A stretch of DNA of 64,000 bases from an uncultured Bacilli bacterium (GTDB taxonomy: Bacteria > Bacillota_I > Bacilli_A > RF39 > UBA660): NCBI GenBank assembly GCA_934168245.1, contig CAKPMY010000001.1, positions 68,761 through 132,760 on the forward strand. Direction: 5' to 3'. The translations under genes and the position numbers were made by a program. Below, piece by piece: positions 16,491 through 39,207 of the stretch (within the stretch, counting starts at the first letter, position 1; each line of letters starts with the position of its first letter). The notes under the pieces were generated by a model. That model did not search any database. It worked only from the letters and a program-made list of their open reading frames with translations, and was not told the origin of the DNA.

Positions 16491-16492
<2 letters not shown>
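16459..16492. terminator. Bidirectional intrinsic terminator between convergent genes
   Basis: AACCAGTCCAA-CTCC-TTGAACTGGTT stem (11 bp, 1 mismatch), flanked by TTTTTATTTT on the plus side and a U-rich run on the minus side. Sits between the stops at 16459 (+) and 16491 (-). Confidence 0.55.
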
Positions 16493-19289
<2,797 letters not shown>

Positions 19290-19356: not shown

Positions 19357-19707
19357 TTAATTTCTCGGTTTAAATATAAGGGCAAATACAAATGAAAATA
19401 TAATAGCAGCTGTAATACCCGTAGCCGTTAAATCAAACATTCCCATAAGTATTCCAACAACTCCCAAACTATTAGCCTTCGCCAAAGCCCCATGTATAAG
19501 TGAATGACCAAAACTAGTTATTGGTACCATTGCTCCTCCACCTACTACTTTAATAATATAGTCATACCAACTAAAACTATCTAAGAATGCTCCTACTACA
19601 ACTAAAATACTAGTTATATGCCCTGGAGTCAACTTAGTATTATCTAAAATTATTTGTGAAATCATACATACAAATCCACAAAACAAAAATGAATTAATAA
19701 GAAGCAC
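19357..19707 (-). CDS. spoVAEB: Stage V sporulation protein AE (SpoVAEB-type)
   Basis: 116-aa membrane protein: LPGHITSILVVVGAFLD...GGGAMVPITSFGHSL... typical of SpoVAEB. Start overlaps the spoVAD stop. Confidence 0.75.
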   Translation of the reverse strand: MLLINSFLFCGFVCMISQIILDNTKLTPGHITSILVVVGAFLDSFSWYDYIIKVVGGGAMVPITSFGHSLIHGALAKANSLGVVGILMGMFDLTATGITAAIIFSFVFALIFKPRN

Positions 19708-20699
19708 TATACCACCTCCAAACTAATAGCATGAGCAATAGAATTAATATTTTGTTTTTGATATAAAAGTGTTGGCGAAAATAAAGCCCCCGTTGCAATT
19801 AATAAAACTCTTCTTAACTTCTTAGTCTTAAGTTGATTATAAACATACCCATAGTTTACTAATGCACTACACACCGGACCCGATCCCCCTGCTAAAACTT
19901 CTGGTTGTTTTTCTAAATCATAAAGCATTACTCCACAATCATTATAGTTTTTACTTAAATCCATCTTATAATTAACTTCCATATAATCTTTAACAATCTC
20001 TTTTCCATATCTTCCTAAGTCTCCAGTCAAAATCAAATCATAATATTCAGGCCCTCTTCCAGTCTCATCAAAATGTCTCTTCATAACATCAATTGCCGCT
20101 GGAGCCATAACTCTACCCATATCATTAGGATCATTCTCATCCATATCAATAATCTTACCTAAAGTAGCACACTCAACTTTAACATCAGTCTTTTCATTAA
20201 CTAAGACAATAGAGGCTGCCCCAGTGGCTGTAAATGTTGCCCCTCTAGGTCTAGGAGCCCCATACTCCGTAGGATTTCTAAATTGTTTTTCGCTACTCAT
20301 ATTATGAGAAGAAACTACACATAAAGCATTCTTTACTTGTTTACTATTTATAAAATTAGCAGCAATTATCATCTCTAAAACACTACTACTACAAGCCCCA
20401 TACACACCTATAAAACCATTTCCATATCCTAAAGTTCCATAAGTAGAAGCCGTAATCTGATTAAGTAAATCTCCTCCAAGTACAATATCAAATTCATTCT
20501 TTAAAATACCTGTCTTCTTAACCGCATAACTAAGCGAATCTTTAACTAATTTTATCTCAGCCTTCTCCCAAGAATCTTCTCCAAAATATAAATCATTATA
20601 TGTCTTATCAAAATACTTCTTCAAAGGTCCATTCTTCTCATAAACACCTGCCACTAAAGCCGTATCTTTTACATAAACATTATTATACTTAAAAGTCAT
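19707..20699 (-). CDS. spoVAD: Stage V sporulation protein AD (thiolase/KAS-like)
   Basis: 330 aa: GVYGACSSSVLEMIIAANFI...GATFTATGAASIVL... matches the SpoVAD fold. Lies in a spoVAC-AD-AE arrangement. Confidence 0.85.
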   Translation of the reverse strand: MTFKYNNVYVKDTALVAGVYEKNGPLKKYFDKTYNDLYFGEDSWEKAEIKLVKDSLSYAVKKTGILKNEFDIVLGGDLLNQITASTYGTLGYGNGFIGVYGACSSSVLEMIIAANFINSKQVKNALCVVSSHNMSSEKQFRNPTEYGAPRPRGATFTATGAASIVLVNEKTDVKVECATLGKIIDMDENDPNDMGRVMAPAAIDVMKRHFDETGRGPEYYDLILTGDLGRYGKEIVKDYMEVNYKMDLSKNYNDCGVMLYDLEKQPEVLAGGSGPVCSALVNYGYVYNQLKTKKLRRVLLIATGALFSPTLLYQKQNINSIAHAISLEVV

Positions 20700-21139
20700 G
20701 CTCCACCTCCTATTAAGAATCTAATCATTCCAAAAAACCAAGCAGCAACAACCCCATATAAAATAACCGAACCTGCTAACTTAAAAATATTAGACCCAAT
20801 TCCATATATTGGACCCTCTTTTTTATAATCAAGTGCTGCACTAGTCATAGAATGTGCAAATCCTGTAATAGGTATCAATAAACCACACTTAAACTTTGTC
20901 ACTAACTTATCAAAAAAACCTAAAGCCGTAGATAAACTCGCAATAAATATCATAATAATAATCATAAATGTAGATGCCTCAGTCCTAGAAACATGATAAA
21001 GACAACATAATAATTCAATTATCCCTTCACCTAACATTCCAACTATTCCACCAACTATAAACGCCACTAAAGCATTCTTTCCTCTAGTCTCTTCTGCTTT
21101 ATGAATATCCGCAATTTTTTTATAACTTTTTTTATCCAT
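20696..21139 (-). CDS. spoVAC: Stage V sporulation protein AC
   Basis: ~147-aa four-TM protein: NALVAFIVGGIVGMLGE...ITGFAHSMTSAALDYKKEG... SpoVAC signature. Probable start at the MDKKSY Met. Confidence 0.8.
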   Translation of the reverse strand: MDKKSYKKIADIHKAEETRGKNALVAFIVGGIVGMLGEGIIELLCCLYHVSRTEASTFMIIIMIFIASLSTALGFFDKLVTKFKCGLLIPITGFAHSMTSAALDYKKEGPIYGIGSNIFKLAGSVILYGVVAAWFFGMIRFLIGGGA

Positions 21140-21211
21140 AATCATCACCAGTAATAGCATTTCCCAAATAAATAAAATAATACAAAAAACTTAAGAATAT
21201 TTCATCTTAAG

Positions 21212-21850
21212 TTATAAAGCCACTCTTAATTTTTCTAAAATCTTACCTTCTTTTCTAGAAACTTGTACTTGACTAATACCAAGTTCTCTACTTGCTTCAC
21301 TCTGAGTCATATCTTCATAATATCTAGCAATTATTAAATTCTTCTCTTCGACAGACAATCTACTAATCTCACGTTTTAAATCTAAAATTTCCGGACTAGT
21401 TTCCTTATCATATGAAGCAACAGAATTATAAAACTCTGGAAGTTCTTCATCCACACTATAATCTAAACTTCTAACATCCAAAGCCGCAACTCTTGCTTCT
21501 TCTATTTTCTCCTCATCTATTTCCAAAAATAAAGAAAGCTCCGTAGTAGTTGGTTCTCTTCCCAACCTTTGACTCATCTGTTCACTAGCCTTTTCAATAC
21601 TTTGATTCAATTTAACTAAATCACTAGATATTTTAACTAATCCTGCTTCTCTAACATATTTACGTACTTCTCCTAATACATAGTAATAAGCATATGTCGA
21701 AAACTTCGTATTTAAACTACTATCAAAATTATGATATGCATTAATTAATCCAATCATTCCTACCTGATACAAATCATCTCTTTCAAAATACTTTGTATAT
21801 CTCTGAATAATACCATATACTAATCCCTCATAATTTAATAGTTCTTCCAT
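21212..21850 (-). CDS. sigF: Sporulation sigma factor, SigF-like (sigma-70 family, short N-terminus), 212 aa
   Basis: Region 2 (YQVGMIGLINAYHNFD), region 3 and region 4 HTH (EASRELGISQVQVSRKEGKILEKLR). Sits in the spoIIAC position between a spoIIAA-like gene and spoVA genes. Confidence 0.65.
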   Translation of the reverse strand: MEELLNYEGLVYGIIQRYTKYFERDDLYQVGMIGLINAYHNFDSSLNTKFSTYAYYYVLGEVRKYVREAGLVKISSDLVKLNQSIEKASEQMSQRLGREPTTTELSLFLEIDEEKIEEARVAALDVRSLDYSVDEELPEFYNSVASYDKETSPEILDLKREISRLSVEEKNLIIARYYEDMTQSEASRELGISQVQVSRKEGKILEKLRVAL

Positions 21851-21860
21851 ACTCTCCTTT

Positions 21861-22193
21861 CTAAATACTAAAACACTTTAATGCCTCAAACTCATCCTTT
21901 ACATAAAATAATCTTGATGAATCTCTTATTCCCTTAAATACATCACTAATTCCACATAAAACTACTTTTCCACAACTTAAAAATATTTCAACTAATTTTC
22001 TTTGGAAATCCCTAAAAATATTTTCATCGGTCTGTCTTACATGATTAAAATCAAATATAAAAAAATGCATTCCCTGCTTATAAAGTAAATAATCTATTTC
22101 TTCATCTAGTTTCTTAAATGTCTTATTAGTTAAATCACCTTCTAACTTAATTACTGTAAATCCTTTAACTACTCCAACATCCATTTCTAACAT
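21861..22193 (-). CDS. STAS-domain anti-sigma-factor antagonist, SpoIIAA-like, 110 aa
   Basis: VIKLEGDL...VVLCGISDVFKGI STAS pattern. 10-nt gap to sigF. The canonical DSSG phosphoserine motif is not recognisable. Confidence 0.55.
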   Translation of the reverse strand: MLEMDVGVVKGFTVIKLEGDLTNKTFKKLDEEIDYLLYKQGMHFFIFDFNHVRQTDENIFRDFQRKLVEIFLSCGKVVLCGISDVFKGIRDSSRLFYVKDEFEALKCFSI

Positions 22194-22245
22194 GAATCCA
22201 CCTCTCTATATTAATATAATGTTAGTCTCTTTAATTATCTACCAA

Positions 22246-22288
22246 TTCGACAAAATCTGTCAAAATATTCGTTCGACAAATCTCGACA
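22246..22288 (-). promoter_or_regulatory. Cluster of Spo0A-box-like repeats (TGTCGAA x2, TGTCGAG x1 on the minus strand) upstream of the spoIIAA-like/sigF operon
   Basis: Plus strand reads ttcgaca (22246-22252), ttcgaca (22272-22278) and ctcgaca (22282-22288). These are reverse complements of the 0A-box consensus TGNCGAA, 55-95 nt upstream of the 22193 start. Confidence 0.45.
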
Positions 22289-22302
22289 AAAAAGAAGAAA
22301 AG

Positions 22303-23037
22303 TTAATACCTTTTCTCCCACTCAATCAACTTAGCATGTACCACAAACTTCTCTCTCGTATCATAACAAGTAGCCAAAGTAAGTATTTTATCACTTGGTA
22401 CAATTTCTAATTCATCATATTTAACTAAACTTCTCTTCTTAATTAAATCGATAAAATTTAAAAACTCCTCATTACTATCATAACCAGTATATAAATAATC
22501 ATTAGTATTCGTAATTCTATAAATACTAAATATTTTAAATATATAATTATTATAAGGAGTAGAAATATAAACTAACTTCTCACTACCATCTTTATTAATT
22601 AAATCTCGTAAACTTCCAAACATAGTTCCATCTTCTCTACCATGTCCATAAATAATATTATTACTAACTAAATCATCTATATCATTTCTATAATCTGTAT
22701 ATATCCATCCTGCATAATTAAAAGACTTATCATATGAATGAGTTAAATAGTAAGAATTATCTTTATGTTTAACAACTGGAAAATTAACAGAAGTATCATC
22801 TACTTTTATCCAAGCCACTACTTCATTATTAATTTTAGCAAGTTCTGTGAAATCAACAGAAAGAAAAGTACTAATTGGATTAATCTCTATCCTAGTAACT
22901 TCTTGAACTAACTTAATACTCTCTTTAGTCTTCTTATTATCTTCATTCCAATTAACAATATAAAAAAAAGAAAAGAGCATAGCGCCTAAAGAAGATATTA
23001 ATAAAACTATTGGTATTAACATTTTCTTCATATACAT
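22303..23037 (-). CDS. srtB: Class B sortase
   Basis: N-terminal TM, NSYYLTH, IIYGHG (His) and TLATCYD (TLxTC catalytic Cys), ~244 aa as for SrtB-type enzymes. Confidence 0.7.
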   Translation of the reverse strand: MYMKKMLIPIVLLISSLGAMLFSFFYIVNWNEDNKKTKESIKLVQEVTRIEINPISTFLSVDFTELAKINNEVVAWIKVDDTSVNFPVVKHKDNSYYLTHSYDKSFNYAGWIYTDYRNDIDDLVSNNIIYGHGREDGTMFGSLRDLINKDGSEKLVYISTPYNNYIFKIFSIYRITNTNDYLYTGYDSNEEFLNFIDLIKKRSLVKYDELEIVPSDKILTLATCYDTREKFVVHAKLIEWEKRY

Positions 23038-23045
23038 GCTCCTTT

Positions 23046-24251
23046 CTACAAAACATCTATATTATCATCTGTATTATTATCTATATTAGTATCATCCTTA
23101 GTCTTATCTTCAACTAAAGTATTCTGTATATAACCATCATTAGGAATATAAGAATTATTTAGACTTTCATTCGAAGTAGAAACAATAACCGGCTCTTCTG
23201 TAATGCCACTAACAGTATTAACATTAGCCTGACTCATACTTGGAGTCACATTCGCCGCATTAGCCTTACCTTGACTCACTTTCAAAGTTTCATTACTATC
23301 TACATTCAAAGTCTTATTCTCCAAATTACTATTAATCTGATTTATATCTAAAGCCTCATTATTAAAATTATTAACTATATTATTAGTATTAACACTTCTC
23401 TCTCTTCTTTTCTTTTCATACTTCTTTTTATCTCTAAGTACAAAGAATAATACTAACAATAATATTACAAAAACAAGTACTAAACTTAAATATAAAATCT
23501 TCTCATCTTTTCCTAACTTCTTCGTAACAGGTGTACTTTCTAAAACTTCAGGACTATATTCAACTCTAGTCCCACGTACTAGCAATCTATGTGTGTTTAT
23601 CGCATATGGTGTACAAGTAACTAGTGTTACATAATCTTCTCCTTCCTGAAGTTTTAAAGCCTCTATATCTGATGGTTCTACAACAAGTACTTGATCAACT
23701 TTATAAGCAAATACTTGATCTAAAATATAGACATAAAACATATCTCCATTTTGGAGTTGATTCAAATCAGTGAATAGTCTTGCTGAAGGCAATCCAGAAT
23801 GAGCCGATAACACTGCATGTGTTGTATCTCCTCCTACTGGAAAAGAACTACCTTCAACATGACCAACACCTTTTTGTAATACTTCATCACTTGTACCATG
23901 ATAGATAGGTATCTTAACATCTATCTTTGGTATTTGTAAATATCCCATCATTCCATTATCCCTAACATTTAAAATATTTAGGTATTCTTGAGACGTTGAT
24001 TGTTCTGGATTAGTAAAAGCATCAACAATATTAGAACCAGATATTCTACTATTATAAAGTCTAGCCTCATCAATCATTTCTTTATTCTTATTACTAGTAT
24101 TTGAAGATATATCACTAGAATAAGCTGTAATTACTTCAACTGCCTGATTAGAATTAATATAATTAATAACAACAGGATATAACATTATAGATAAACCTAT
24201 TAAAATACATATTGAAAATATAATAACAGGTATCTTTTTCTTTATATTCAA
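23046..24251 (-). CDS. srtC: Class C (pilus-polymerising) sortase with an unusual ~125-aa N/S/T-rich C-terminal cytoplasmic tail
   Basis: HAVLSAHSGL (His), TLVTCTPYAINTHRLLVRG (TLxTC plus Arg) and a C-terminal TM followed by a KKKYEKKRRER stop-transfer. The C-terminus then continues as a long low-complexity tail. Confidence 0.8.
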   Translation of the reverse strand: MNIKKKIPVIIFSICILIGLSIMLYPVVINYINSNQAVEVITAYSSDISSNTSNKNKEMIDEARLYNSRISGSNIVDAFTNPEQSTSQEYLNILNVRDNGMMGYLQIPKIDVKIPIYHGTSDEVLQKGVGHVEGSSFPVGGDTTHAVLSAHSGLPSARLFTDLNQLQNGDMFYVYILDQVFAYKVDQVLVVEPSDIEALKLQEGEDYVTLVTCTPYAINTHRLLVRGTRVEYSPEVLESTPVTKKLGKDEKILYLSLVLVFVILLLVLFFVLRDKKKYEKKRRERSVNTNNIVNNFNNEALDINQINSNLENKTLNVDSNETLKVSQGKANAANVTPSMSQANVNTVSGITEEPVIVSTSNESLNNSYIPNDGYIQNTLVEDKTKDDTNIDNNTDDNIDVL

Positions 24252-24252
24252 A

Positions 24253-25755
24253 TTATTCAGTTATTTCTTCTTTTTTATTACGATAAACAATAATAGCAAT
24301 AGCTGACGCTGCGATTACTAATAAACCAATGAAACTAAATAAAGAAGTACCCATACCACCAGTAAATGGTAATGTACCAGTTTCATATGCTGCTATATCA
24401 ACTCTATAATAACCAGTAACTGTACCTTCCGTAGCACCTGTTATTTTAACCTTTATAGGAACCGCATCTTTTGGTAATCCATATCCAGCAGCAGTAGAAG
24501 TTTGTTTTAAATAATATGTACCAGATTTAACACCAGCATAACTACCTCTACCATTAGTATCAGTAGTAATATCTCCTACTTTAGTACTTAATGCTGCATC
24601 AGAGTAAACCTCAAATTTAACATTAGATAACTTCTTAGAATTATCACTATTAGAATAGATAAATAATTCAATACCATATGTAAATGCTGATACATTAACT
24701 GCTGAAGTTGTAGTAGTAAGTGTACCATATGGATCATTTGCATATGTTAATACTGCACTATTTAAGTTACCTGCATCTCCTAATGTAGCACTACTATTAA
24801 GTTTAGCCTTATATTGAACTGTAACAGTAGTAGCATCAATATAACTAGTATTAAATACTATAGTAATCTTTTGTCCAGTAATTGTAGCCGTAGCAACAGT
24901 ATTACCAGAAGAGTTTTTAAATGTACCATTACTATTAGTTAAAGTAGTTGTTCCATACTTAATAGTCATTGTACTAAGTGCTGATAATGTAATACCATTT
25001 CCAACTGTATCAGTAATAGTATAAACAGTATTAGTTGCATTAGTAGGATATTGAGGAACAGTACCAACTAAAATATAAGTAAACTCTTGTCCAAAAGAAT
25101 AATCTCCTTCAAAATAACCTTCTGAACCAACATACTTAGTAAGTGAAGCATTACTAACTTTAGCAACTATAGTAGAATTGTTAATCTCCCAAGTAGTACC
25201 ATTTGCAACTGGAATAACATTTCCAACCATAACAGCATAAACATTAGTAGTAACACTAGGTATTACTAAATAAGCACCTGCCGCAACAGTACCAGTTGCT
25301 GTACTACCAGAAGTAGTTAAAGCCGTACTAGTAGTCGTATGATTCTTAACATATGTTGCATAAGCACTAACTAACTTATCTAATGTAGATTGAGTTCTAG
25401 TAGAACCAGATGTAATATCACCAGATGTCAAAGCATAATACTCATCTACTGTAAGATTTTTATAAGTACTACTAGAAGCAAGAAATGCCTTAAAACTAGT
25501 AGTAAATTCATAAGTCATTACATTAGAAGTAGCATTATAATAAACATCTAAAATCTTATATGCAACTAACCTATCAGCCGTCCCAACATTAGAAACAGTA
25601 ATAGTTCCTGTATTAGTTACTAATAAACTACTAGGATCGGTAGTACCTTTTTTACTACTATCAGTAGTAATTGTAACAGCATCTACATTTAAAAATATTC
25701 CAAATGTAAATATTGCAACCAATAACCCAATAATTTTCTTTTTCATTTTATACAT
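24253..25755 (-). CDS. LPXTG-type pilin subunit (sorting signal LPFTGG + TM + RNKKEE), paralogue 1, 500 aa
   Basis: Signal peptide, T/S/V-rich Ig-like sequence, E-box-like YYLKQTSTAAGYGLP and C-terminal TGTLPFTGGMGT...hydrophobic...YRNKKEE. Stop overlaps the srtC start. Confidence 0.7.
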   Translation of the reverse strand: MYKMKKKIIGLLVAIFTFGIFLNVDAVTITTDSSKKGTTDPSSLLVTNTGTITVSNVGTADRLVAYKILDVYYNATSNVMTYEFTTSFKAFLASSSTYKNLTVDEYYALTSGDITSGSTRTQSTLDKLVSAYATYVKNHTTTSTALTTSGSTATGTVAAGAYLVIPSVTTNVYAVMVGNVIPVANGTTWEINNSTIVAKVSNASLTKYVGSEGYFEGDYSFGQEFTYILVGTVPQYPTNATNTVYTITDTVGNGITLSALSTMTIKYGTTTLTNSNGTFKNSSGNTVATATITGQKITIVFNTSYIDATTVTVQYKAKLNSSATLGDAGNLNSAVLTYANDPYGTLTTTTSAVNVSAFTYGIELFIYSNSDNSKKLSNVKFEVYSDAALSTKVGDITTDTNGRGSYAGVKSGTYYLKQTSTAAGYGLPKDAVPIKVKITGATEGTVTGYYRVDIAAYETGTLPFTGGMGTSLFSFIGLLVIAASAIAIIVYRNKKEEITE

Positions 25756-25922
25756 CCTTTCTTTACTTTATATATAACAAATCATCCTAAAATATCACTC
25801 TTTACAAAGTTGAAGTATTTATAAAAAACTAATATTATAAAACAATTTTGTTACCCAAACTATTTAACCTACCTTATAATATATTTTAAACGTAAATGTA
25901 AAATTTTTCAATACAAACCACC

Positions 25923-25951
25923 TAAAAAAGACCTTCTTTTTAAGAAAGTCT
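25923..25951 (-). terminator. Terminator-like hairpin at the 3' end of pilin paralogue 2
   Basis: AGACCTTCTT-TTT-AAGAAAGTCT (10-bp stem, one mismatch) overlapping the stop codon, followed by a U6 run on the minus strand. Confidence 0.4.
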
Positions 25952-27436
25952 CTTATTCTTATTTTTCCCTCTATACAAACTAAATATCATAAAAGATGTA
26001 ATTATTACAACTAAACCTACCAAAGTATAAATAATTGTTCCAAGTCCTCCAGTAAATGGCAAAGTAGCAACCTTTATTGTTGGTATTTCTACTTTATAAT
26101 ATCCATCTATTGTTCCATCTACTGATCCATTTATTTTTACACTCATGCTTACTGTAGTTGCTAAACCATATCCTGTTGCTGTCTTAGTATTTTTTAAATA
26201 ATATGTACCAGCAGCCACACCTCTTAAAGTACCAACGCCATCACTACCTGTAGTTATAGTTCCAACTTTACGAGTTAGTCCTGAATCAGAATAAACATCA
26301 AACGTAACTCCAGATAACAATGTCGCCATATTATCTCTATCATAAACCAATAATTCAATACCATACGTATATGCTCCTACACTAACAGCCGTAGTCGTAG
26401 TTGTTCCTGTATAATATGGATCATTAGAATATGTCAAAGTCGCACTATTTAAGTTACCAAGCTCACCTAAAACAGCCCCAGTATTAAAGTTAGCCTTATA
26501 CTCAACTGTAATAGTACTATTAGTAATATAATTAGTATAAAAAGTAATTACTAAATTATTACCCGTAATACTAGCCGAACCAACAGTATTATCTGAAGAA
26601 TCTTTAAAAATACCATTATTATTAGTTAATGTAACACTTCCATCTCTAATACTAATATTATTAACTCCTGCAAAAGTTAATCCTGATCCAAGTGTATCTT
26701 TAATTGTATAAACAGTATTAGTAGCATTAGTAGGATATCTAGGAACAGTAGCAACTAAATAATAAGAAATATCATCCACAAGATAATAGTCTCTTTCAAT
26801 ATCTCCAATAGAACCAATTGACTTCGTAATAGAAGGTTCTGCTACTTTCGGTACAATAAAGGCATTACTCAAAAACCATTCACCAATATTATTAGGTTCA
26901 AATACAACATTCGCAACCATAACTGAATATATTTTTGCTGTAGCATTTGGTAATATCAAATAAGCCCCACTATATACGGGAGTAACAATATCAAGATATT
27001 CATCACTCACGATAGAATTAGTTTTTATATAAGTAGTATAAGCACTCATTAATTTATCTAACGTAGAATTTGTAACTGTAGAACCAGATGTAATATCACC
27101 AGATGTCAAATTAAAATAATCACCAACAGTTAAATTTTTATATGTAGAATTACTTGTTAAAAACTTCTTAAAATTACTAGTAAATTCATAAGTTATAACA
27201 TTACTAGTAGAATTATAAAAAGCATCTAATATCTTATACAAAGAAAAAGTATCATTACCAATATTAGTAGGATCTACATCTACACTTCCTCTAGAAGTTA
27301 TCAAATAACTATTCGTATCAACTGTACCTTTAGTATTAGAATCAACGGTAATATTAACTGCCTTTACATTGATAAACATACAAAAAACGACTAAAATAAT
27401 TACTCCAAATATCTTCTTCATACTACATCCTCTCAT
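25940..27436 (-). CDS. LPXTG-type pilin subunit (LPFTGG), paralogue 2 (most divergent), 498 aa
   Basis: Same architecture: signal peptide, conserved YKILDAFYNSTSNVITYEFT block, E-box YYLKNTKTATGYGL, ATLPFTGGLGT + TM + RGKNKNKR. Confidence 0.7.
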   Translation of the reverse strand: MRGCSMKKIFGVIILVVFCMFINVKAVNITVDSNTKGTVDTNSYLITSRGSVDVDPTNIGNDTFSLYKILDAFYNSTSNVITYEFTSNFKKFLTSNSTYKNLTVGDYFNLTSGDITSGSTVTNSTLDKLMSAYTTYIKTNSIVSDEYLDIVTPVYSGAYLILPNATAKIYSVMVANVVFEPNNIGEWFLSNAFIVPKVAEPSITKSIGSIGDIERDYYLVDDISYYLVATVPRYPTNATNTVYTIKDTLGSGLTFAGVNNISIRDGSVTLTNNNGIFKDSSDNTVGSASITGNNLVITFYTNYITNSTITVEYKANFNTGAVLGELGNLNSATLTYSNDPYYTGTTTTTAVSVGAYTYGIELLVYDRDNMATLLSGVTFDVYSDSGLTRKVGTITTGSDGVGTLRGVAAGTYYLKNTKTATGYGLATTVSMSVKINGSVDGTIDGYYKVEIPTIKVATLPFTGGLGTIIYTLVGLVVIITSFMIFSLYRGKNKNKRLS

Positions 27437-27472
27437 ACTATAATATCTATTACAATTTTACAAAGAAAAGCA

Positions 27473-27501
27473 TAAAAAAACAAGCCTTAACTTAGGCTTG
27501 T
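27473..27501 (-). terminator. Rho-independent terminator at the 3' end of pilin paralogue 3
   Basis: Perfect 8-bp stem ACAAGCCT / AGGCTTGT (loop TAACTT) overlapping the last codons, followed by U7 on the minus strand. Confidence 0.55.
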
Positions 27502-28991
27502 TCTTGCTCTTTTTTTCTATTATATAAAACGAATAGTAAAATTGCACTAACTACAGTAATTAAACCAATCATTGTATATAAAACTGTACCAATACTACCA
27601 GTAAATGGTAATGTTCCTGATTCAAACGCAGATACTTCTGCTATATAATAACCTTCAGTTTTACCTTCAGTAGAACCTTCGATTTTTACTTTAACAGGAA
27701 CTGCATCTCTTGGTAAATTATAACCAGGTGCAGTTGAAACTTGTTTTAAATAATAAGTACCTTCAGCAACACCAGGTAAAAGTGCTTTACCCTCAGAATC
27801 AGTAGTTACTTCACCAATTTTATTAGTTAATGATGAATCTGAATAAATTTCAAATTTAACACCAGATAATACTATACTATGATCTTTATCTGCATAAATT
27901 AATACTTCAATACCATAAGTAAATGCTGATGCATTAACTGCTGAAGTAGAATTAGTACCAGTTCCATATGGATCATTTGAATATGTCAATACAGCACTAT
28001 TTAAGTTTCCTGCTGAACCAACTGTAGCATTATTATTTAATTTTGCCTTATATTCAATTGTTACTGTAGTACTTAAAACATAATTAGTATCAAATACTAT
28101 AGTAAGTTTTTGTCCATTAACTGTAATAGTTGCTACTGTATTACCTGCAGCATTTTTAATTACACCATTAGAATTAGTTAATGTTGTATTACCATCTTTT
28201 ACAATTATAGTAGAAATACTTGATAATGTAATAGCATCACTAACTGTATCTACAATAGTATAAGTCTTATTAGTAGCATTAGTAGGATATTGAGGAACAG
28301 TACCAACTAAGAAGTATGAGAATTCTTCTCCAATTGAATAGTTACCATCAACATGTCCAATTGTACCAATTGACTTTGTAACTGAAGCAGTACTGATTTT
28401 TGCTTTTATTGTTACATCACTAATATTCCATTCATTACCATTAGCAACTGGAATAACATTTCCAACCATTACTGCATAAACACTAATTGTAGATTTAGGA
28501 ATAATTAAATAAGCACCTGCCTCAACAACAGCACCTGTTGCTCCTTCACTAGCAGTATAAGCCAAATCAGTTCCAGCAACTGCATGAGTTTTTACATAAG
28601 CAGCATATAAACTAACTAACTTATCTAATGTAGATTGAGTTCTAGTAGAACCAGATGTAATATCACCAGATGTTAAATTATAATATTGATCAACTGTAAG
28701 ATTTTTATAATCTGTAGTAGTAGCCAAGAATGCTTTAAAATCACTAGTAAACTCATAAGTAAATACATTAGTAGATGCATTATAGAATGTATCTAAAATC
28801 TTATAAGCAACTAAAGAATCAGTTGTTGGAGCATTAGTAATATTAATAGCACCTTGACTAGTTACTAATGCACTATTTGTATCAATAGTACCTTTTTTAC
28901 TTGTATCAGTCGTTATTGTTTCTGCATTAACATTTAGTACAAGTCCAAATGTAAATATAGCAACTAACAACCCAATAATTTTCTTATTCAT
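27492..28991 (-). CDS. LPXTG-type pilin subunit (LPFTGS), paralogue 3, 499 aa
   Basis: Near-identical signal peptide to paralogue 1 (KKIIGLLVAIFTFG), same conserved blocks, E-box YYLKQVSTAPGYNLP, SGTLPFTGSIGT + TM + NRKKEQ. Confidence 0.7.
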   Translation of the reverse strand: MNKKIIGLLVAIFTFGLVLNVNAETITTDTSKKGTIDTNSALVTSQGAINITNAPTTDSLVAYKILDTFYNASTNVFTYEFTSDFKAFLATTTDYKNLTVDQYYNLTSGDITSGSTRTQSTLDKLVSLYAAYVKTHAVAGTDLAYTASEGATGAVVEAGAYLIIPKSTISVYAVMVGNVIPVANGNEWNISDVTIKAKISTASVTKSIGTIGHVDGNYSIGEEFSYFLVGTVPQYPTNATNKTYTIVDTVSDAITLSSISTIIVKDGNTTLTNSNGVIKNAAGNTVATITVNGQKLTIVFDTNYVLSTTVTIEYKAKLNNNATVGSAGNLNSAVLTYSNDPYGTGTNSTSAVNASAFTYGIEVLIYADKDHSIVLSGVKFEIYSDSSLTNKIGEVTTDSEGKALLPGVAEGTYYLKQVSTAPGYNLPRDAVPVKVKIEGSTEGKTEGYYIAEVSAFESGTLPFTGSIGTVLYTMIGLITVVSAILLFVLYNRKKEQEQA

Positions 28992-29130
28992 AATATTCGT
29001 CCTTTCTTTTCTTTATATATAACAAACCCAATCCAAATATCATTAAACTATCTACGAGCTGCAGTTACTCATATTCACCTAAACAACATCTGAATAAAGA
29101 TTTTGCTACCTAAATTAATTAATTATTTTC

Positions 29131-29946
29131 TTATCCTTCACTAGAAGTATTTTGATTATCTTGATTCATATTCTGATTATTAATCTGATTATTGTCTTGA
29201 TTATCTACCTGATTAATAACCGAATTATCACTCTGAGTAGTAACTTGACTATCTATTTGATTTACATTCATACTACCCGCATCAGTCTTCTTATTATTCT
29301 TCTTCTTTTTGATAATAAGTACAATCGCCACAATAAATATAATTAAAGCAATTCCAAATATCGCAACATATAGATATATAGTATCAGCTGTATATGGAGG
29401 ATCTACTCCGCCATCTCCTGGATTAACATTCAAAGATTTAGCCTCAGTCTTAGCAAAAACACTTAAATCATACATATAAACATCTTGAATTTCGTTAAAA
29501 TTAGGTAAACTGACTAATAATGGTCCAGATGAATATTCATAATCCTCAGTCTTCTTACTATCAACTCTAATTAAATACAATCCCACTTTTAAATCTTTAA
29601 AAGTAAATTCTCCATTACTATCAGTCTTCGTACTAGCAATATAATTAATATTATTATCACTTATATACTTATTAAGTTTACTAGTATAATCATCCCATTC
29701 AAAACTCTCTAATGTATTAACATCTTCTGTATATCCTACAAACTCATCAACATAAGTATATTTAGCCAACTCACTCATATCAGCAATCTTGTATAAATAA
29801 ACATTAGTATCTGTAATATTAACATCACTGTAATTATACTTACCTATTATACTAGTCAATCTATTAACTTCAATTTCTGCATTTACATTAGTAATAGTAA
29901 AGAAGAATGCTACTATAAAAACAACTAATAATTTAATTTTTTTCAT
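29131..29946 (-). CDS. Small CnaB-like surface protein with C-terminal TM anchor and Q/N-rich cytoplasmic tail, 271 aa (candidate minor/basal pilus component)
   Basis: Signal peptide, TDSNGEFTFKDLKVGLYLIRVDSKK (CnaB/prealbumin-like motif) and a TM helix preceded by VNPGDGGVDPPYTADT (no canonical LPXTG). KKKKNNKK stop-transfer is followed by a ~50-aa Q/N-rich tail. Start abuts the stop of the upstream gene. Confidence 0.45.
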   Translation of the reverse strand: MKKIKLLVVFIVAFFFTITNVNAEIEVNRLTSIIGKYNYSDVNITDTNVYLYKIADMSELAKYTYVDEFVGYTEDVNTLESFEWDDYTSKLNKYISDNNINYIASTKTDSNGEFTFKDLKVGLYLIRVDSKKTEDYEYSSGPLLVSLPNFNEIQDVYMYDLSVFAKTEAKSLNVNPGDGGVDPPYTADTIYLYVAIFGIALIIFIVAIVLIIKKKKNNKKTDAGSMNVNQIDSQVTTQSDNSVINQVDNQDNNQINNQNMNQDNQNTSSEG

Positions 29947-31992
29947 CTACATACCCTCCATCTTTCTTCTCATGTATAATACATATCCACAAGATGCACA
30001 AACTATAACAATAAATCCACCTACTATATAAGGTATATTACCAACACCACCGGTATTAGGTAACATATCTATTTTATCGTTTACAAGATCAACTGTAACT
30101 ACACCTGTTGTATTCGTAATCGTTTGATTTTTAAATGTAATATTACCTGAAGTATCTACAACTACGGTATACGTATCTGGCAATAGTACATATCCTGTTT
30201 GAACTCTAGTTTGTTTTAAATAATATGTAGTACCAGGAATTAAATCAGTAAACTCTAATCCCTCTGCAACTTTAGAAGCATCACTCAAGTTAGAATTACT
30301 ATATAAACTAAATTTACCATCTGATAATACTGTTCCATCATCACTATCTGTCAAATTAACTTTTAATGCCACATTTGCAACTTTAAATGCCACTGAAACT
30401 TTATAATCTTGTGATGTATCTAAGTAATAATAATTATCTGCTAAAGCACCAGTAATTTCTACTGAATTTACATAATCAGCAACTATTTTATCTGTTGCGG
30501 TAAATGTTGCATTAAGAGTAACACTTGCTCCCGCCGCTATTGTACCAATTTTAACTATTTGATCACTAAGTAATGTATAAGATGTACTAGTTGTAAATGT
30601 TGCTCCTGTAAGATATTCTTGTACCATTACATCTTTAATCGGTATACTGGCTGTATTTGTAACTGTAATTTGGAATGGAACTACTTCTCCCTTTTTATAA
30701 CTTGCTTTTTTATTTGGTATTGTAATTGTAATCGTTGGAGAGAAATATCCAGAGAATAACATCCATTCACCATAAATAACTACATCTTCTTCAGGCATTT
30801 CAAATGTCTTACTCTTATACCAACCTAAGAATTTATAACCTGTTGCTACTGGATCATCCGCAACTGTTATTGTTTCTCCTGGTGCATAAGCCACTGTCGC
30901 TGGTAATAGACTATCAGCATTACTAGGCATAACTGAACCTTGGAACTGATAAGAAACATTATATTTAATTAATTCAAACTTACCAGTAATTGAAACATTC
31001 TTACTAGGCATCTGGAATATTCCATCAGTTAGACTAACATCTGTTGATGTCCAACCTAAGAACCTATATCCATTAATAACATCTCCGGCCTTTAATGAAT
31101 CAACAATTACATCATCCCCAGCCCCATAAGATTTAGGAGTTGGTGAAATAAATCCATCTGGAACATTACCAGATACAGAATACGTAACTGTATATTTTGT
31201 TTTTGCTGTAAAACTACCCGTAAATACTACATTGCTAGAAGGCATTGTAAACGAATTATTAGTAACTGTAACATTACTAGTAGACCACCCAGAGAAAGTA
31301 TAACCTGCTACTGTCGGATTAGCCTCAACACCAACTGTTGTACCAGCACTATATGAGTTAGTTGTAGGAACAGGTGCTCCATCAGGAACTGTACCTGTAT
31401 ATTTATAAGTTACTGTATATAAAGTAGCCTCTTCATCACCCATAAATACATGTACTGTATTTGATTTAAAAGAGAAATCATTTTCTCTAGCAAAAGCCGT
31501 ATTATAAAAATCTAGTCTTTTTCCATTTGGCAAATCAGGAGTAGTCGTAACAACACCTACAGTCAACTTACAACCTGCCTGTAAATTCTTTACTTTAAAC
31601 GAAACTGTCCTTGTTGCACTATCATATACCAATCCAGCACTATCTCCAACGACATAACCAGGACAACTAGTACCATCACTACGTTTAACTGCCCCTATCG
31701 TACCATCACTCGTTGTAACAAATTCTTTAAATGTTAATCCATCAGGTAACTTATCTTCAACATATATATAATCACTACTAACATTAGCAGTAACAGTATC
31801 ACTAGAAGAAACTGCTTTAGCATCCTTACCATCATAAATAACATCAATATAATAAGTTAAGTCGCTATTAGGTGCTACTCTGGCTCCAGATTCCAAAGGA
31901 ACTGCAAAAGATCTATTGATAATAACAATCAATAAAGCAACAAATAAAGACAAAGAAAGACCAATAATAATATTTCGTTTCTTGTTCTTCAT
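29947..31992 (-). CDS. LPNTG-anchored surface protein with three Listeria-Bacteroides (Flg_new) repeats and a C-terminal CnaB/E-box domain (candidate tip or ancillary pilin/adhesin), 681 aa
   Basis: Signal peptide. Repeats with AGYTFSGW, NGYRFLGW and TGYKFLGWY. E-box-like YYLKQTRVQTGY. MLPNTGGVGN + TM + RRK at the C-terminus. Confidence 0.65.
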   Translation of the reverse strand: MKNKKRNIIIGLSLSLFVALLIVIINRSFAVPLESGARVAPNSDLTYYIDVIYDGKDAKAVSSSDTVTANVSSDYIYVEDKLPDGLTFKEFVTTSDGTIGAVKRSDGTSCPGYVVGDSAGLVYDSATRTVSFKVKNLQAGCKLTVGVVTTTPDLPNGKRLDFYNTAFARENDFSFKSNTVHVFMGDEEATLYTVTYKYTGTVPDGAPVPTTNSYSAGTTVGVEANPTVAGYTFSGWSTSNVTVTNNSFTMPSSNVVFTGSFTAKTKYTVTYSVSGNVPDGFISPTPKSYGAGDDVIVDSLKAGDVINGYRFLGWTSTDVSLTDGIFQMPSKNVSITGKFELIKYNVSYQFQGSVMPSNADSLLPATVAYAPGETITVADDPVATGYKFLGWYKSKTFEMPEEDVVIYGEWMLFSGYFSPTITITIPNKKASYKKGEVVPFQITVTNTASIPIKDVMVQEYLTGATFTTSTSYTLLSDQIVKIGTIAAGASVTLNATFTATDKIVADYVNSVEITGALADNYYYLDTSQDYKVSVAFKVANVALKVNLTDSDDGTVLSDGKFSLYSNSNLSDASKVAEGLEFTDLIPGTTYYLKQTRVQTGYVLLPDTYTVVVDTSGNITFKNQTITNTTGVVTVDLVNDKIDMLPNTGGVGNIPYIVGGFIVIVCASCGYVLYMRRKMEGM

Positions 31993-32114
31993 ATTGCATC
32001 TCCTTCCTTTATACTATAAACACCTACTATACAAATTAATTATAGCAAAGTAACATTTCAAATTCAAGATAGCAATTATAAAAACCATCTAATTAGTAAT
32101 AAAAGTATATAAAC

Positions 32115-35100
32115 CTATGCAAGAATAAGAACATAAGGATTAGTAGAGGTACCATCACCATAATCAACCTTCATACCAGGTTTAATTGATACAACTGGCC
32201 TAAAATCATTAGAAAAACTAGTCAAACAATACCGAACAAAGGTATTCATATTTACATTTGGACCGTATACTGCAATTCGTGAATTATCAGTTGTTGTACT
32301 TAGAGGTGACATAGTCCAAAAATTTAAAGTACCTAAATATGAAAACGAATAGTATCTACCGGCTAATAAAACCTCATCATAAGTAAGTAATCCAACTGGA
32401 TATTTTAAACCATTTGTTGTAGTAAACTTATCATAGCTGTTATTGCACTTAAGTAACGACGATGCACCATTAAAAAATAAATCATAACCAAAGAAACGTA
32501 CATCGCTAGAGGCAGCAATTTTTCCAATAATTGTATTTTCACTTACCAAAGATGTAGTTATAATTTCACGATTATTACAAAATGTTGCATCTTCCAAATA
32601 ATCTGTATAACTTGTCATATTATTCTTATACCATGTTTCGATCGTAGTTTTCGCATTAGAATCATTAATATTATTAAAAACCTTGGCTTCTTTAAAGGCT
32701 TGTAAATTATAAGCATTAATATCATAATAGGAAATAGTCTCATTTTTATAGTAAATTAAATATTTAACGGAAGCACACTTTGTATTTTCACTAAAACAAG
32801 TGTAGTTATAGCCCTTTGTCAATGTTTCAAATTCATTATATAAATTAGTCACTGACAGACTAATCGTATCTTGCAAAACATATTGTGTACCATCCCATTG
32901 TTCCCAGTTACCAAAAATAATTTTCTTATTTGCAGCCTGTGTTTTTAAATCCGAAGCCAATGAGCCATCATTAAGAGAAACGTATGTCAGATTACCTTCA
33001 TTATAAGAAATAACATAATATATATTAGAACAAGAAACATCAGAAGAATCTGGACACACATAATAATCCGCCAGAGTTTCATATTTTTCTGCCCATACTA
33101 TTTTTTGACCAATGTAACTTGCCACCTTATAATTTCCACTACTATAAGTTGCAGAAGTAGAAGCATTCATATATATTGGAACATAATAAGCCTCAGTAGA
33201 AGTCCCTCCAACTATATAAACAGGTTCACTGCAACTACTAGAACCATCTAAACAAGTATAATATTTTTTATATGAAGTACTCCAAGTATCCTGAGTAGCA
33301 TTATTAAGAACATAAGTACCATCAAAATTGTTACGTTGTAATGAAGAATAACTAGAAGTAAAATAGTATTTTCCAGTACCCATTGTTTGAGTCTTACTTA
33401 TATTAATAGTACTAGTAGTTAATCCCAATACATCATACCATTTAGGCATAGTATATGTTTTTACTTTTTCAAGACTTCCATACATATAACCAACACTAGC
33501 AATAGAACCAGGATCAGTATTAAAAGCACCTTTTCCTATACTACAAGCAGTATTAGTACACTGATTATTACTATTAGGAAGACCATTATATAATATCTTT
33601 ACACCACCAGTATCGGTAGTTCTAACTATTTTCCAACAAAATCCAGCAAACAACAAGTTATTATCATCAATAGAACCATGATAATAATGAATTGGATAAT
33701 TATCATTTGCAGTTGAAGAATAAGTATAAACTCCTTTATTTGTAGTCGTAGTACTAGTAAGATCTAAATTAGTATCCAAAGTAGCCTTACCTGCCACAAT
33801 ATCATATAAAGTAGCAGCCTCATAAATAGTTCCATCCACAGTTTTATTCATAGAAGCCTTAGCCCAAGTTGCTTTCAAAGTAACCGCATAAGGTGGCATA
33901 ACAAAATTAGTACCCTTACGTTCAACATTAGTATCATCTATTTGCCAGCCCTTAAACTCATAACCAGCACACACTGGAACAGTACTAGAAATATCAACTA
34001 CACTAAATGGATTATGATAAATAGTATATGGCAAATGATTTATTGTACAATCAGAAGGAGCATTTCCATCATAAACAACAGGATAGGCATTAGCAAGAGC
34101 CGGAGTGTCAGTACTAATAATGGTCTCAGAAACATCACCAATCTTATAATTGATTGCTACCTTTCTAAAAAGTGGATATACACCAACTGCACCTTCCGAA
34201 TACTTATCTTTTAATTTTAAATCAAAACTCATTGTAACAGGAAATCCTGTAGCAAGTCGATTATCTGAACCTTCATTACCAAAAAACCATATCATTCTTG
34301 CACCAATAATATTGCCTGAAGTACCAAATGTTACATTTGGTTTGATATTATCAATAGAAAAAACATCAGTATTTATCAAAGTATCAATACTAAATAAATC
34401 ATAATCTACATATCGCACCATATAATCTATGTTTGAAATAATTCTATAAAAAGAAGAAAGATCAGTTCCAACATATTGAACATCACTCATTTCTTTTAAA
34501 ATATCACTTTTGTTTCCACCAACATTATACTGAACAGCAAAAAAGTTTTTTATTTCTGGATAGTTTTTTCTGATATTATTATACGTTTCCTTTTCTTTTC
34601 CCATATCTCGAGCCGGATCACCATCAGTAATTAATACAACCCAAATATCATTGTCACCATAATCAGTAGAAGTTTCAAGGAGTTCATTTAAAGCATCTAA
34701 TGCCGAATAGTAACTAAGCCCAGTACTCCCATCTAAATTACCATATGATGTTGAGTTAAGTTCAGTAAGATCAGTACCAAAATCACTTGCTATCTCGGCT
34801 ACTGAATTAAATTTTATAACTGCTAAAGAGTTATCACTATTTTTTGAAAGAAAACTTCGTCCAAATGCACGAATACGGTTTTTCATTGTAGTAATATCTA
34901 TAGTATCATCCACTAACAATACTAAATCTATAGGTTTAATATCTTTTGCCATAGCAACACTATCAAGTTTAAAAGTTACTCGTACTCTGCCCTTAGAAAC
35001 CCATTCTGCATTTACATCAATATTCCAACTTCCAGGATCATCGTCTTCAGATGAAAGTTTTGTTGATTGATATGTGATGTTTTTAACTTCCACATCTGCC

Positions 35101-35207
35101 GCAAATGAATTAGTAAGTGTAAATACAAAAACAAAAATTAAAATTAAAGATAATAAAAATAATAAAGACTTCTTTTTAGTAAAAAAACTAAAGACTTTCT
35201 TTAACAT
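32115..35207 (-). CDS. Giant secreted vWA-domain protein with a Flg_new repeat and C-rich C-terminal region; no sortase signal; 1030 aa
   Basis: Signal peptide. vWA-like DLVLLVDDTIDIT...VVLITDGDP. CAGYEFKGWQ repeat. Long Y/T/S/C-rich C-terminal 550 aa ending ...KVDYGDGTSTNPYVLILA with no TM or LPXTG. Confidence 0.55.
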   Translation of the reverse strand: MLKKVFSFFTKKKSLLFLLSLILIFVFVFTLTNSFAADVEVKNITYQSTKLSSEDDDPGSWNIDVNAEWVSKGRVRVTFKLDSVAMAKDIKPIDLVLLVDDTIDITTMKNRIRAFGRSFLSKNSDNSLAVIKFNSVAEIASDFGTDLTELNSTSYGNLDGSTGLSYYSALDALNELLETSTDYGDNDIWVVLITDGDPARDMGKEKETYNNIRKNYPEIKNFFAVQYNVGGNKSDILKEMSDVQYVGTDLSSFYRIISNIDYMVRYVDYDLFSIDTLINTDVFSIDNIKPNVTFGTSGNIIGARMIWFFGNEGSDNRLATGFPVTMSFDLKLKDKYSEGAVGVYPLFRKVAINYKIGDVSETIISTDTPALANAYPVVYDGNAPSDCTINHLPYTIYHNPFSVVDISSTVPVCAGYEFKGWQIDDTNVERKGTNFVMPPYAVTLKATWAKASMNKTVDGTIYEAATLYDIVAGKATLDTNLDLTSTTTTNKGVYTYSSTANDNYPIHYYHGSIDDNNLLFAGFCWKIVRTTDTGGVKILYNGLPNSNNQCTNTACSIGKGAFNTDPGSIASVGYMYGSLEKVKTYTMPKWYDVLGLTTSTINISKTQTMGTGKYYFTSSYSSLQRNNFDGTYVLNNATQDTWSTSYKKYYTCLDGSSSCSEPVYIVGGTSTEAYYVPIYMNASTSATYSSGNYKVASYIGQKIVWAEKYETLADYYVCPDSSDVSCSNIYYVISYNEGNLTYVSLNDGSLASDLKTQAANKKIIFGNWEQWDGTQYVLQDTISLSVTNLYNEFETLTKGYNYTCFSENTKCASVKYLIYYKNETISYYDINAYNLQAFKEAKVFNNINDSNAKTTIETWYKNNMTSYTDYLEDATFCNNREIITTSLVSENTIIGKIAASSDVRFFGYDLFFNGASSLLKCNNSYDKFTTTNGLKYPVGLLTYDEVLLAGRYYSFSYLGTLNFWTMSPLSTTTDNSRIAVYGPNVNMNTFVRYCLTSFSNDFRPVVSIKPGMKVDYGDGTSTNPYVLILA

Positions 35208-38440: not shown

Positions 38441-38736
38441 AAATTAACCTCCACATAAGTAACATTCTTTCCTTCATTTTAGAAACTAATTATAAAAAAA
38501 TCAATACAAAAAATGACACTTTTTTTACCATTTTTTTCAATACGTTGATATATAAAGAAAAGCTCCAAAAACTTTTTTTGTTCGATTTACGACAATTGAC
38601 ATTTTTATACATTTAAGAAAATTGCAACAGCACATTTTTTATTTTTTTGCAAGTGTTTTTCAACCAATTTCCTTATTTTTCAACAAAACAGTATTTCCAT
38701 AAAAGAAAAAAATTAAAAAAATGTAAAAATCATTTT

Positions 38737-39207
38737 TTACAATTTCTTAATTTTTGTATCAGTTGAACCAAAACCTCCATTTCTAGAACCAAATGCATTA
38801 TCGTTATCAACAACTAAATATTTTGTAAACACAACTTGTCCTATTACATCGCCTTTCTTAACCTCAATGTCATGATCACTACAGTTAAAATAAGCAAAGT
38901 AAAAATGTCCATCATTATCTGGATTACCATAATAATCTGCATCTATTAATCCTACACTATTTGCCATTAAAAACCCTTTCTTAGGCCCAGAACTACGATT
39001 TAATAATAAATAGCATTCATCATCCATACAATAAGCCTTTAAGCCTGTTGGAATAAGTGTAGGCTTAATTCCTGGTTTATACATAGGAATAACTATATCT
39101 TCCGCTGCTTCAACATCATATCCAGCCGAATGGGCTGTCTTTCTAACCGGTAAATTAATTCCTTTATCTTCATATCCTTTTACTACTTCAAATCCACGTT
39201 TTCTCAT
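38737..39207 (-). CDS. dut: dUTP diphosphatase
   Basis: RSSGPKKGF, GLIDADYYG and RNGGFGSTD dUTPase motifs, 156 aa. Confidence 0.85.
   Translation of the reverse strand: MRKRGFEVVKGYEDKGINLPVRKTAHSAGYDVEAAEDIVIPMYKPGIKPTLIPTGLKAYCMDDECYLLLNRSSGPKKGFLMANSVGLIDADYYGNPDNDGHFYFAYFNCSDHDIEVKKGDVIGQVVFTKYLVVDNDNAFGSRNGGFGSTDTKIKKL

Follow-up and report, generated by a model that had tools for sequence, protein, structure and literature searches.

A spoIIA-like locus without spoIIAB in an uncultured RF39 bacterium: a STAS gene directly followed by a SigF-like sigma factor gene

Gene order and transcription signals

We analyzed a locus in a 64-kb stretch of DNA (contig CAKPMY010000001.1 of assembly GCA_934168245.1, positions 68,761 to 132,760; hereafter the window) from an uncultured gut bacterium, in which a gene for a STAS-domain protein is directly followed by a gene for a SigF-like sigma factor, with no gene for the kinase SpoIIAB between them. 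The G+C content is about 29%, and the proteins encoded in the window share 96-97% identity with those of 'Mycoplasma sp. CAG:877', from a genus (CAG-877) that is listed in the supplement of PMC10868615 under the GTDB order RF39, family UBA660. Identical proteins are encoded on a 288-kb metagenomic scaffold, for which a precomputed Pfam annotation spans the whole window. The genes at the locus are, in the order of transcription:

21861-22193, minus strand: STAS gene, 110 aa, with a Pfam STAS domain
21851..21860, minus strand: spacer between the STAS and sigma genes, 10 nt, TAG-AAAGGAGAGT-ATG, with the Shine-Dalgarno site of the sigma gene
21212-21850, minus strand: SigF-like sigma gene, 212 aa, with regions 2, 3 and 4
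20696-21139, minus strand: spoVAC, with 21139 as the probable start (the open reading frame as listed reaches 21160), Pfam and NCBIfam matches
19707-20699, minus strand: spoVAD, Pfam and NCBIfam matches
19357-19707, minus strand: spoVAE, Pfam and NCBIfam matches

The first-pass annotation of this DNA had placed the sigma gene 10 nt behind the STAS gene and intact spoVAC, spoVAD and spoVAE genes just downstream of it. A check of the open reading frames (ORFs) gave the same coordinates and spacing, and the matches to Pfam and NCBIfam show the three spoVA genes to be intact. Since the spacer is 10 nt long and holds the Shine-Dalgarno site only, there is no room for spoIIAB between the STAS and sigma genes.

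This arrangement is not a peculiarity of a single genome. When GTDB species genomes were searched with a profile of the STAS family, 54 loci came up, all of them in metagenome-assembled genomes (MAGs) of uncultured gut bacteria labelled 'Bacilli', 'Tenericutes' or 'Mycoplasma sp.', from human, rabbit, goat and mouse hosts. Wherever the sequence extends far enough, the sigma gene is the immediate neighbour behind the STAS gene, with a gap of a few to about 14 nt or an overlap, and the kinase-less order is found in about 53 species genomes. Nearly all loci for which the sequence reaches far enough (about 50) also have spoVAC-AD-AE after the sigma gene, either directly or behind an insert of 1-3 kb. 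Among 1.84 billion representative proteins, searched exhaustively with the profile, only 258 relatives of the STAS protein came out at E <= 1e-3. Among the outer relatives, five had an informative genomic context (P0243, P0249, P0270, P0271 and P0296), and in all five the sigma gene directly follows the STAS gene; P0264 and P0334 were left out because their contigs are too short. Four of these outer sigma genes are complete (216-221 aa) and the contig of P0271 stops 69 codons into the gene, while spoVAC-AD-AE follow the sigma gene in two of the five contexts. In B. subtilis the spoVA operon lies right after spoIIA, and the shared synteny supports orthology with the spoIIA locus.

The following transcription signals were identified around the two genes, listed from upstream to downstream:

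22293..22319, minus strand: terminator-like hairpin with a T-run, at the end of the upstream class B sortase gene
22282-22288, minus strand: distal 0A-like box TGTCGAG, 95 nt upstream of the ATG, with the weakest conservation among the boxes
22272-22278, minus strand: second predicted Spo0A box TGTCGAA, within TTTGTCGAACGAA, 85 nt upstream of the ATG
22258..22263, minus strand: TTGACA between the boxes, family consensus ttTGtcat
22246-22252, minus strand: proximal predicted Spo0A box TGTCGAA, within TTTTGTCGAA, 59 nt upstream of the ATG
22213..22241, minus strand: likely core promoter with a weak -35 element TAGATA, a 17-nt spacer and the -10 element TATATT, 9/12 matches
21184..21211, minus strand: AT-rich hairpin CTTAAGA-N8-TCTTAAG followed by T6, directly after the sigma stop codon, read from the sequence
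21155..21183, minus strand: forespore-type (sigma-F/sigma-G-like) promoter before spoVAC, GTATT, 13 nt, GGGAAATGCTA

The terminator-like hairpin of the sortase gene is the sole such site in 21100-22400 (0.1 expected from shuffles), and analogous hairpins precede the 0A boxes in the relatives. Its position just before the boxes indicates that the STAS-sigma operon has a promoter of its own. The three 0A-box-like heptamers that had been proposed upstream of the operon are indeed present, and the TGTCGAA pair among them is conserved across the relatives. To compare them, 53 upstream regions were anchored on the proximal box (on the distal box in the case of L008). The proximal box is a perfect TGTCGAA in 51 of the 53 regions, including species in which the STAS protein is only about 40% identical; the exceptions are L047 (TGTCGGA) and L008 (TGTCTAA). 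The second box is situated 26 nt further upstream (box-N19-box) and is conserved at a level of at least 80%, whereas the family consensus at the distal box, TTTGTC.A, stays below 80%. The upstream consensus as a whole is TTTGTC.A-N-TTTGTCGAACGAA-N-ttTGtcat-N-TTTTGTCGAA, followed after 29 nt by a -10-like TAtAtT and finally by the Shine-Dalgarno site. A single TGTCGAA heptamer is weak evidence by itself (seven in the window and 2.3 expected), whereas the window has just one pair TGTCGAA-N15-25-TGTCGAA, and none arose in 100 shuffles.

The -10 element TAtAtT is kept 29 nt downstream of the proximal box across the family, whereas the -35 element is not kept. The proximal box abuts this weak -35 element, which is the position of an activator, and 0A boxes that abut a weak -35 are the geometry of Spo0A-activated promoters such as spoIIG. 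On these grounds, the boxes and their footprint in 51 of 53 loci, we predict a Spo0A-dependent promoter. The TTGACA between the boxes represents either a third, degenerate 0A box or another possible -35 element; together with a GATAAT 18 nt downstream it reaches a promoter score of 11/12. No GAAT -10 element at the right spacing for a sigma-H-type promoter was seen by eye upstream of the STAS gene.

The hairpin behind the sigma gene, of which similar versions occur in the relatives, is probably a weak terminator or attenuator, on which the terminator scan was silent because the stem has too few G-C pairs. Before spoVAC, nearly all loci have a conserved GTATa followed by a GGnnAnAnTA-like or CATAnTA-like -10 element, motifs that resemble the sigma-F and sigma-G consensus promoters of B. 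subtilis. The conservation of this predicted promoter may be read as a sign of an active forespore-type holoenzyme in the lineage. Across species (L007-L067) the -10 element alternates between the sigma-F-like GGnnAnAnTA and the sigma-G-like CATAnTA, which raises the question of whether there are one or two forespore sigma factors in RF39.

The STAS protein and the sigma factor

The STAS protein passes the Pfam model STAS PF01740 (24.4 bits, cutoff 22.6), and its best NCBIfam match is SpoIIAA TIGR02886, with 22.8 bits against an equivalog cutoff of 114.75. The family profile matches SpoIIAA 1AUZ with an E value of 1.7e-7. An AlphaFold2 (AF2) model of the protein has the STAS fold (predicted local distance difference test score, pLDDT, 85; predicted template modelling score, pTM, 0.81), and its top match in the PDB is SpoIIAA 1THN_B with a template modelling (TM) score of 0.82. 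SpoIIAA chains gave TM scores of 0.79-0.82, the best of them coming from complexes with SpoIIAB, and the UsfX-RsfB complex 8IH8 was also among the structural matches. The ratio of nonsynonymous to synonymous substitutions (dN/dS) is 0.07-0.30 for the STAS gene, indicative of purifying selection, and two motifs on surface helices, YLLYKQGMH(Y/F)F and KLVEIFLSCGK, are nearly invariant in the family.

The site that is phosphorylated in SpoIIAA, Ser58 of the DSSG motif where helix alpha-2 begins, is not retained. In the profile alignment to 1AUZ, the residues D56-S57-S58-G59 correspond to D56-E57-N58-I59, such that Ser58 is replaced by Asn58. The first-pass annotation, which had matched DSSG to TDEN, was one residue off in the alignment. 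Residue 58 varies among the 54 core sequences, that is, the window protein and its relatives from the GTDB loci (N in 21, S in 8, K in 7, D in 5, G and A in 4 each, T in 3), and a Ser or Thr is present in 11 of these 54 sequences and in 17 of 104 outer representatives. None of the neighbouring Ser or Thr residues is conserved in the core. Residue 59 is hydrophobic in the core, whereas Gly59 is kept in 88 and D56 in 91 of the 104 outer representatives; Ser/Thr58 and Gly59 occur together in 16 of the 104, including a DSSG in P0270. Our interpretation is that residue 58, mostly N, S, D, T or G in the core, looks like a helix N-cap position and not like a conserved phospho-acceptor. Judged by its sequence, the STAS protein is a divergent descendant of SpoIIAA that is predicted to have no phospho-acceptor.

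The sigma protein contains the domains Sigma70_r2, r3 and r4, all above the Pfam gathering thresholds, as is typical of group 3 of the sigma-70 family. None of the NCBIfam models reached its cutoff. The SigB/F/G subfamily model TIGR02980 scored 167.8 bits (cutoff 234.35) and the SigF equivalog model TIGR02885 163.3 bits (cutoff 321.45), followed by SigG with 113-121 bits and SigB with 92 bits. The best relative with a solved structure is sigma-F of G. stearothermophilus (1L0O_C, E 1.3e-37). The alignment starts at residue 39 in 1L0O_C and at residue 9 here, so that about 30 N-terminal residues are gone, and the earlier remark that the sigma factor is short (212 aa) could be traced to this end of the protein, which still extends over positions 12-224 of the 227 positions in the SigB/F/G core model. 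Lengths across the family range from 211 to 222 aa, and dN/dS values of 0.08-0.24 indicate purifying selection, with the pairs that involve the L011 sigma gene being invalid because the coordinates were in the wrong register. The proposal that the gene encodes a SigF-like factor is supported by the SigF model ranking ahead of SigG and SigB, by the structural relative and by the spoVA synteny, and the Spo0A-box promoter agrees with it. By genomic context, after a STAS gene and before spoVA genes with a forespore-type promoter, it is a sigma-F.

We also considered the possibility that the two genes belong to a different STAS-sigma module, such as a stress module of the RsbV/sigma-B type that has lost RsbW. 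The scores of the sigma factor below every NCBIfam equivalog cutoff, with the SigB/F/G subfamily model nominally at the top, leave some room for this idea. We consider it very improbable, given that the SigF model exceeds SigB by 163 to 92 bits, that the best solved relative is a sigma-F and that the STAS protein finds its best structural and profile matches in SpoIIAA rather than in RsbV or RsbS. The Spo0A-box promoter on the operon and the spoVA synteny, the same as that of spoIIA-spoVA in B. subtilis, also speak against it.

The sigma gene is variable in form in some of the relatives. Five related species have the SigF-like gene in two pieces, as overlapping ORFs (L015:6376-7066; L041:6324-7014; L044:6324-7017; L045:5659-6343; L056:6329-7010). 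The break is located in the loop between regions 2.2 and 2.3, inside domain sigma-2 (...AYxNY / KFSTYAYYYVLGEV), and the C-terminal half, with an ATG of its own, occupies the +1 frame in all five. The junction sequence differs in each species. In the SpoVAD tree L015 stands apart from the other four split loci, which implies that the split arose at least twice. Both halves have dN/dS values of 0.11-0.28, and these genes may encode a two-polypeptide sigma factor. Programmed +1 frameshifting is unlikely, because no slippery codons precede the stop and the C-terminal half has its own ATG. In B. subtilis, the SigO-RsoA pair is a two-subunit sigma factor with the functions of region 2 and region 4 on separate proteins. 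The split genes are alike in that the sigma function would be distributed over two polypeptides, but their break lies within sigma-2, where it separates region 2.2 from region 2.3 in what is otherwise an ordinary SigF-like gene.

An apparent 5' truncation of the sigma gene in L025, L026, L027, L029 and L037 turned out to be an artefact of ORF calling, since the frame runs on upstream. In these five loci (~6340-6440) it reaches the usual N-terminus without an ATG, GTG or TTG, and this sub-clade is likely to use a non-canonical start codon (ATC, ATT or ATA) for the sigma gene.

Loss of the kinase and the control of sigma-F

The SpoIIAB sequence of G. stearothermophilus, checked against PDB 1TIL_A, was used as a query in phmmer searches (--max) that covered the window and 60 related loci and took in every ORF of 45 aa or more. 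No SpoIIAB-like ORF was found in this set, the only matches having E>2, and no kinase was located within 6-10 kb in any of the approximately 60 loci. The GHKL kinase gene that lies between the STAS gene and sigF in a partner-switching spoIIA operon is thus missing from the window and the 60 loci, in line with the earlier reading of the 10-nt spacer, and in the five outer contexts, too, the STAS gene has the sigma gene directly behind it. According to the Pfam annotation, the 64-kb window has no protein resembling HATPase_c_2, and its sole HATPase_c domain is part of a 744-aa hybrid histidine kinase. The sole PP2C protein in the window (57535-58284, 249 aa) has a PASTA Ser/Thr kinase encoded next to it, in the manner of PrpC/PrkC.

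For the absence of the kinase from the order as a whole, we rely on the study by Field, Bowerman and Hugenholtz (2024), who used gene-presence tables and KEGG-orthologue annotations of genomes more than 95% complete to show that RF39 largely lacks spoIIAB and spoIIE, the latter being reduced or absent, while many sporulation genes are kept (PMC10868615). The loss of spoIIAB in RF39 is already published as a presence/absence result, on which our literature search found no other papers. What is new here is the anatomy of the remaining locus, with its degenerate phospho-site, shortened sigma factor and conserved promoter architecture.

We consider it likely that the locus is orthologous to spoIIA, with spoIIAB deleted in this RF39 bacterium and the operon reduced to a STAS-sigma pair that is independent of phosphorylation. 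The lineage probably controls sigma-F by an as yet undescribed mode. The first-pass annotation had left two options, a SpoIIAB encoded elsewhere or a reduced or alternative partner switch, and the second is favoured by an arrangement that is fixed in about 53 species genomes and by the lack of conservation of the phospho-acceptor. In the scheme that we propose, a bicistronic operon for the SpoIIAA-derived STAS protein and sigma-F would be transcribed from a promoter that Spo0A activates through two to four phased 0A boxes next to a weak -35 element, and a holoenzyme of the sigma-F/G type would then read forespore-type promoters, such as that of the adjacent spoVAC-AD-AE operon. With SpoIIAB lost and, as published, SpoIIE as well, a partner switch driven by phosphorylation would no longer exist, which agrees with the loss of Ser58 and Gly59 of DSSG in the STAS protein. 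Since the STAS gene is under purifying selection and always tightly coupled to the sigma gene, we infer that its product acts on sigma-F without phosphorylation.

How it may do so is more speculative. The most likely mode would be direct binding of the STAS protein to sigma-F, as a stoichiometric holding factor or anti-sigma factor; a less likely mode is that it antagonises an anti-sigma factor that is not a kinase. Direct binding is suggested by the invariant co-location and coupling of the genes, the conserved helix surfaces and a signal of co-evolution, and we put it forward tentatively, as a possibility with somewhat less than even prospects. The partial correlation between STAS and sigma in a mirror-tree analysis was 0.48, second to that of 0.69 between SpoVAC and SpoVAE. 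The value for sigma and SpoVAD is nearly as high (0.44), which makes the co-evolution signal suggestive but not specific. A bolder hypothesis, which we regard as doubtful, is that RF39 sporulates without SpoIIAB and SpoIIE, with the STAS protein as a direct, phosphorylation-independent regulator of sigma-F and with a sigma-F that, in some species, works as two polypeptides translated separately.

Several observations weigh against a phosphorylation-independent STAS-sigma pair. Besides the sigma-SpoVAD correlation, we know of no STAS protein that binds a sigma factor directly. The reported loss was deduced from KEGG-orthologue annotation, and in a lineage that evolves this fast a very divergent kinase could be missed; the STAS protein itself is far below the cutoff of the SpoIIAA model, and such a kinase could escape annotation in the same way. 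Moreover, some outer relatives, such as P0270, have a full DSSG, and a kinase could persist in some lineages. Finally, sporulation has never been observed in RF39, and the SpoMAG classifier assigns RF39 MAGs a sporulation probability of 0% (PMC12536801).

In one alternative, SpoIIAB or an equivalent kinase or anti-sigma factor is encoded elsewhere in the genome and a classical partner switch is in operation. Our search covered the window and the related loci, orthologue-based calls can overlook divergent proteins (PMC10868615), and a minority of the relatives (16 of 104 outer members) have both Ser/Thr58 and Gly59. Yet the window protein has Asn58 and Ile59, most of the core has no Ser or Thr at residue 58 or conserved nearby, and no kinase was found in the surroundings of about 60 loci or, apart from the hybrid histidine kinase, a HATPase_c-type domain in the window. 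With the matching phosphatase gene spoIIE also reported missing (PMC10868615), we find this alternative quite improbable.

Another explanation is that RF39 does not sporulate and that the two genes are decaying relics, which have no regulatory role or have been co-opted for a function unrelated to spores. Reductive evolution with many losses of sporulation genes is documented in these orders (PMC10868615), the classifier score points in the same direction, and no spores have been observed, which is because there is no cultured member of RF39. Decay is at odds with the purifying selection on both genes (dN/dS 0.07-0.30), the intact spoVAC-AD-AE genes and the maintenance of 0A boxes and forespore-type promoters across species with STAS proteins that are only about 40% identical. 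As circumstantial evidence, the few taxa passed to chicks alongside spore-forming families included sequence variants of 'Mollicutes RF39' (PMC7028958). We therefore judge the relic explanation improbable, and retain a spoIIA locus reduced to a phosphorylation-independent pair as the favoured hypothesis.

Known systems and neighbouring genes

The locus resembles spoIIA of B. subtilis and Geobacillus in that a STAS protein with the SpoIIAA fold is encoded upstream of a SigF-like sigma factor in one operon, with predicted Spo0A boxes in the promoter and a spoVA operon with a forespore-type promoter immediately downstream. It differs from the spoIIAA-spoIIAB-sigF arrangement with SpoIIE in that spoIIAB is missing and SpoIIE is reported absent from the order, in the replacement of Ser58 and Gly59 by Asn and Ile, in the loss of about 30 N-terminal residues from the sigma factor and in the scores of both proteins far below the equivalog cutoffs. 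The genes spoVAA and spoVAB are also absent at the RF39 locus. The SigF-UsfX-RsfA-RsfB system of M. tuberculosis, in which UsfX reportedly has no kinase activity and RsfA is regulated by redox state and not by phosphorylation, is a precedent for a SigF-family partner switch that is independent of a kinase cycle. M. tuberculosis nevertheless still has the anti-sigma factor UsfX as the target of its STAS proteins, and no anti-sigma factor was identified here. The nearest cultivated spore-forming relatives, Turicibacter sanguinis and the Erysipelotrichales, are also gut Bacilli with strongly reduced sets of sporulation genes (10.1101/2022.02.25.481979; PMC13492147), but Turicibacter sanguinis keeps the genes for SpoIIAA, SpoIIAB and sigma-F adjacent to each other (PMC13492147).

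SpoIIAA, SpoIIAB and SpoIIE are regarded as universal in endospore formers, being the textbook mechanism by which sigma-F activity is confined to the forespore, and a 2025 survey lists nine genes, spoIIAB being one of them, that each of its 63 predicted spore-formers possesses (SpoMAG; PMC12536801). A large and widespread gut lineage appears to break this rule, having kept sigF, spoVA and the Spo0A-box and forespore-type promoters while dropping the kinase and the phospho-site. Compartment-specific activation of sigma-F may work in another way in these bacteria, or the genes may serve a reduced developmental programme. Classifiers with spoIIAB as a marker gene will count such lineages among the non-sporulating ones, which bears on estimates of the transmission of gut bacteria between hosts. 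If true, a two-component switch of a STAS protein and a sigma factor would be a mode of sigma-factor control not described before, and a demonstration of a kinase-free STAS-sigma mechanism or of sporulation would sharply raise the interest of the locus.

The surroundings of the operon contain several other features. Directly downstream of spoVAE, a 932-aa protein is encoded (16491-19289) that has no Pfam match and is present in the CAG-877 group at 55-74% identity. It has a zinc-ribbon-like motif at the N-terminus (CNRCGANL...CNLCG), a transmembrane segment, a large C-terminal domain and a very long Asn-rich stretch of low complexity that includes a run of about 20 Asn residues. On the other side, a large pilus/adhesin locus (22303-35207) is found in a genome labelled 'Mycoplasma'. 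It consists of two sortase genes (22303-24251), one for a 401-aa protein and one for a class B enzyme, a tandem array of three SpaA-type pilin genes coding for about 500 aa each (24253-28991) and genes for surface proteins with Flg_new/CLIPPER repeats (29947-35207). The presence of sortases fits a walled RF39 cell better than a mollicute. Further along, the window contains two anaerobic ribonucleotide reductase pairs (36125-42196), each made up of a gene for an NrdD-like protein (771 aa in one pair, 709 aa in the other) and, behind it, one for a radical-SAM activase, with a dUTPase gene situated between the two pairs.

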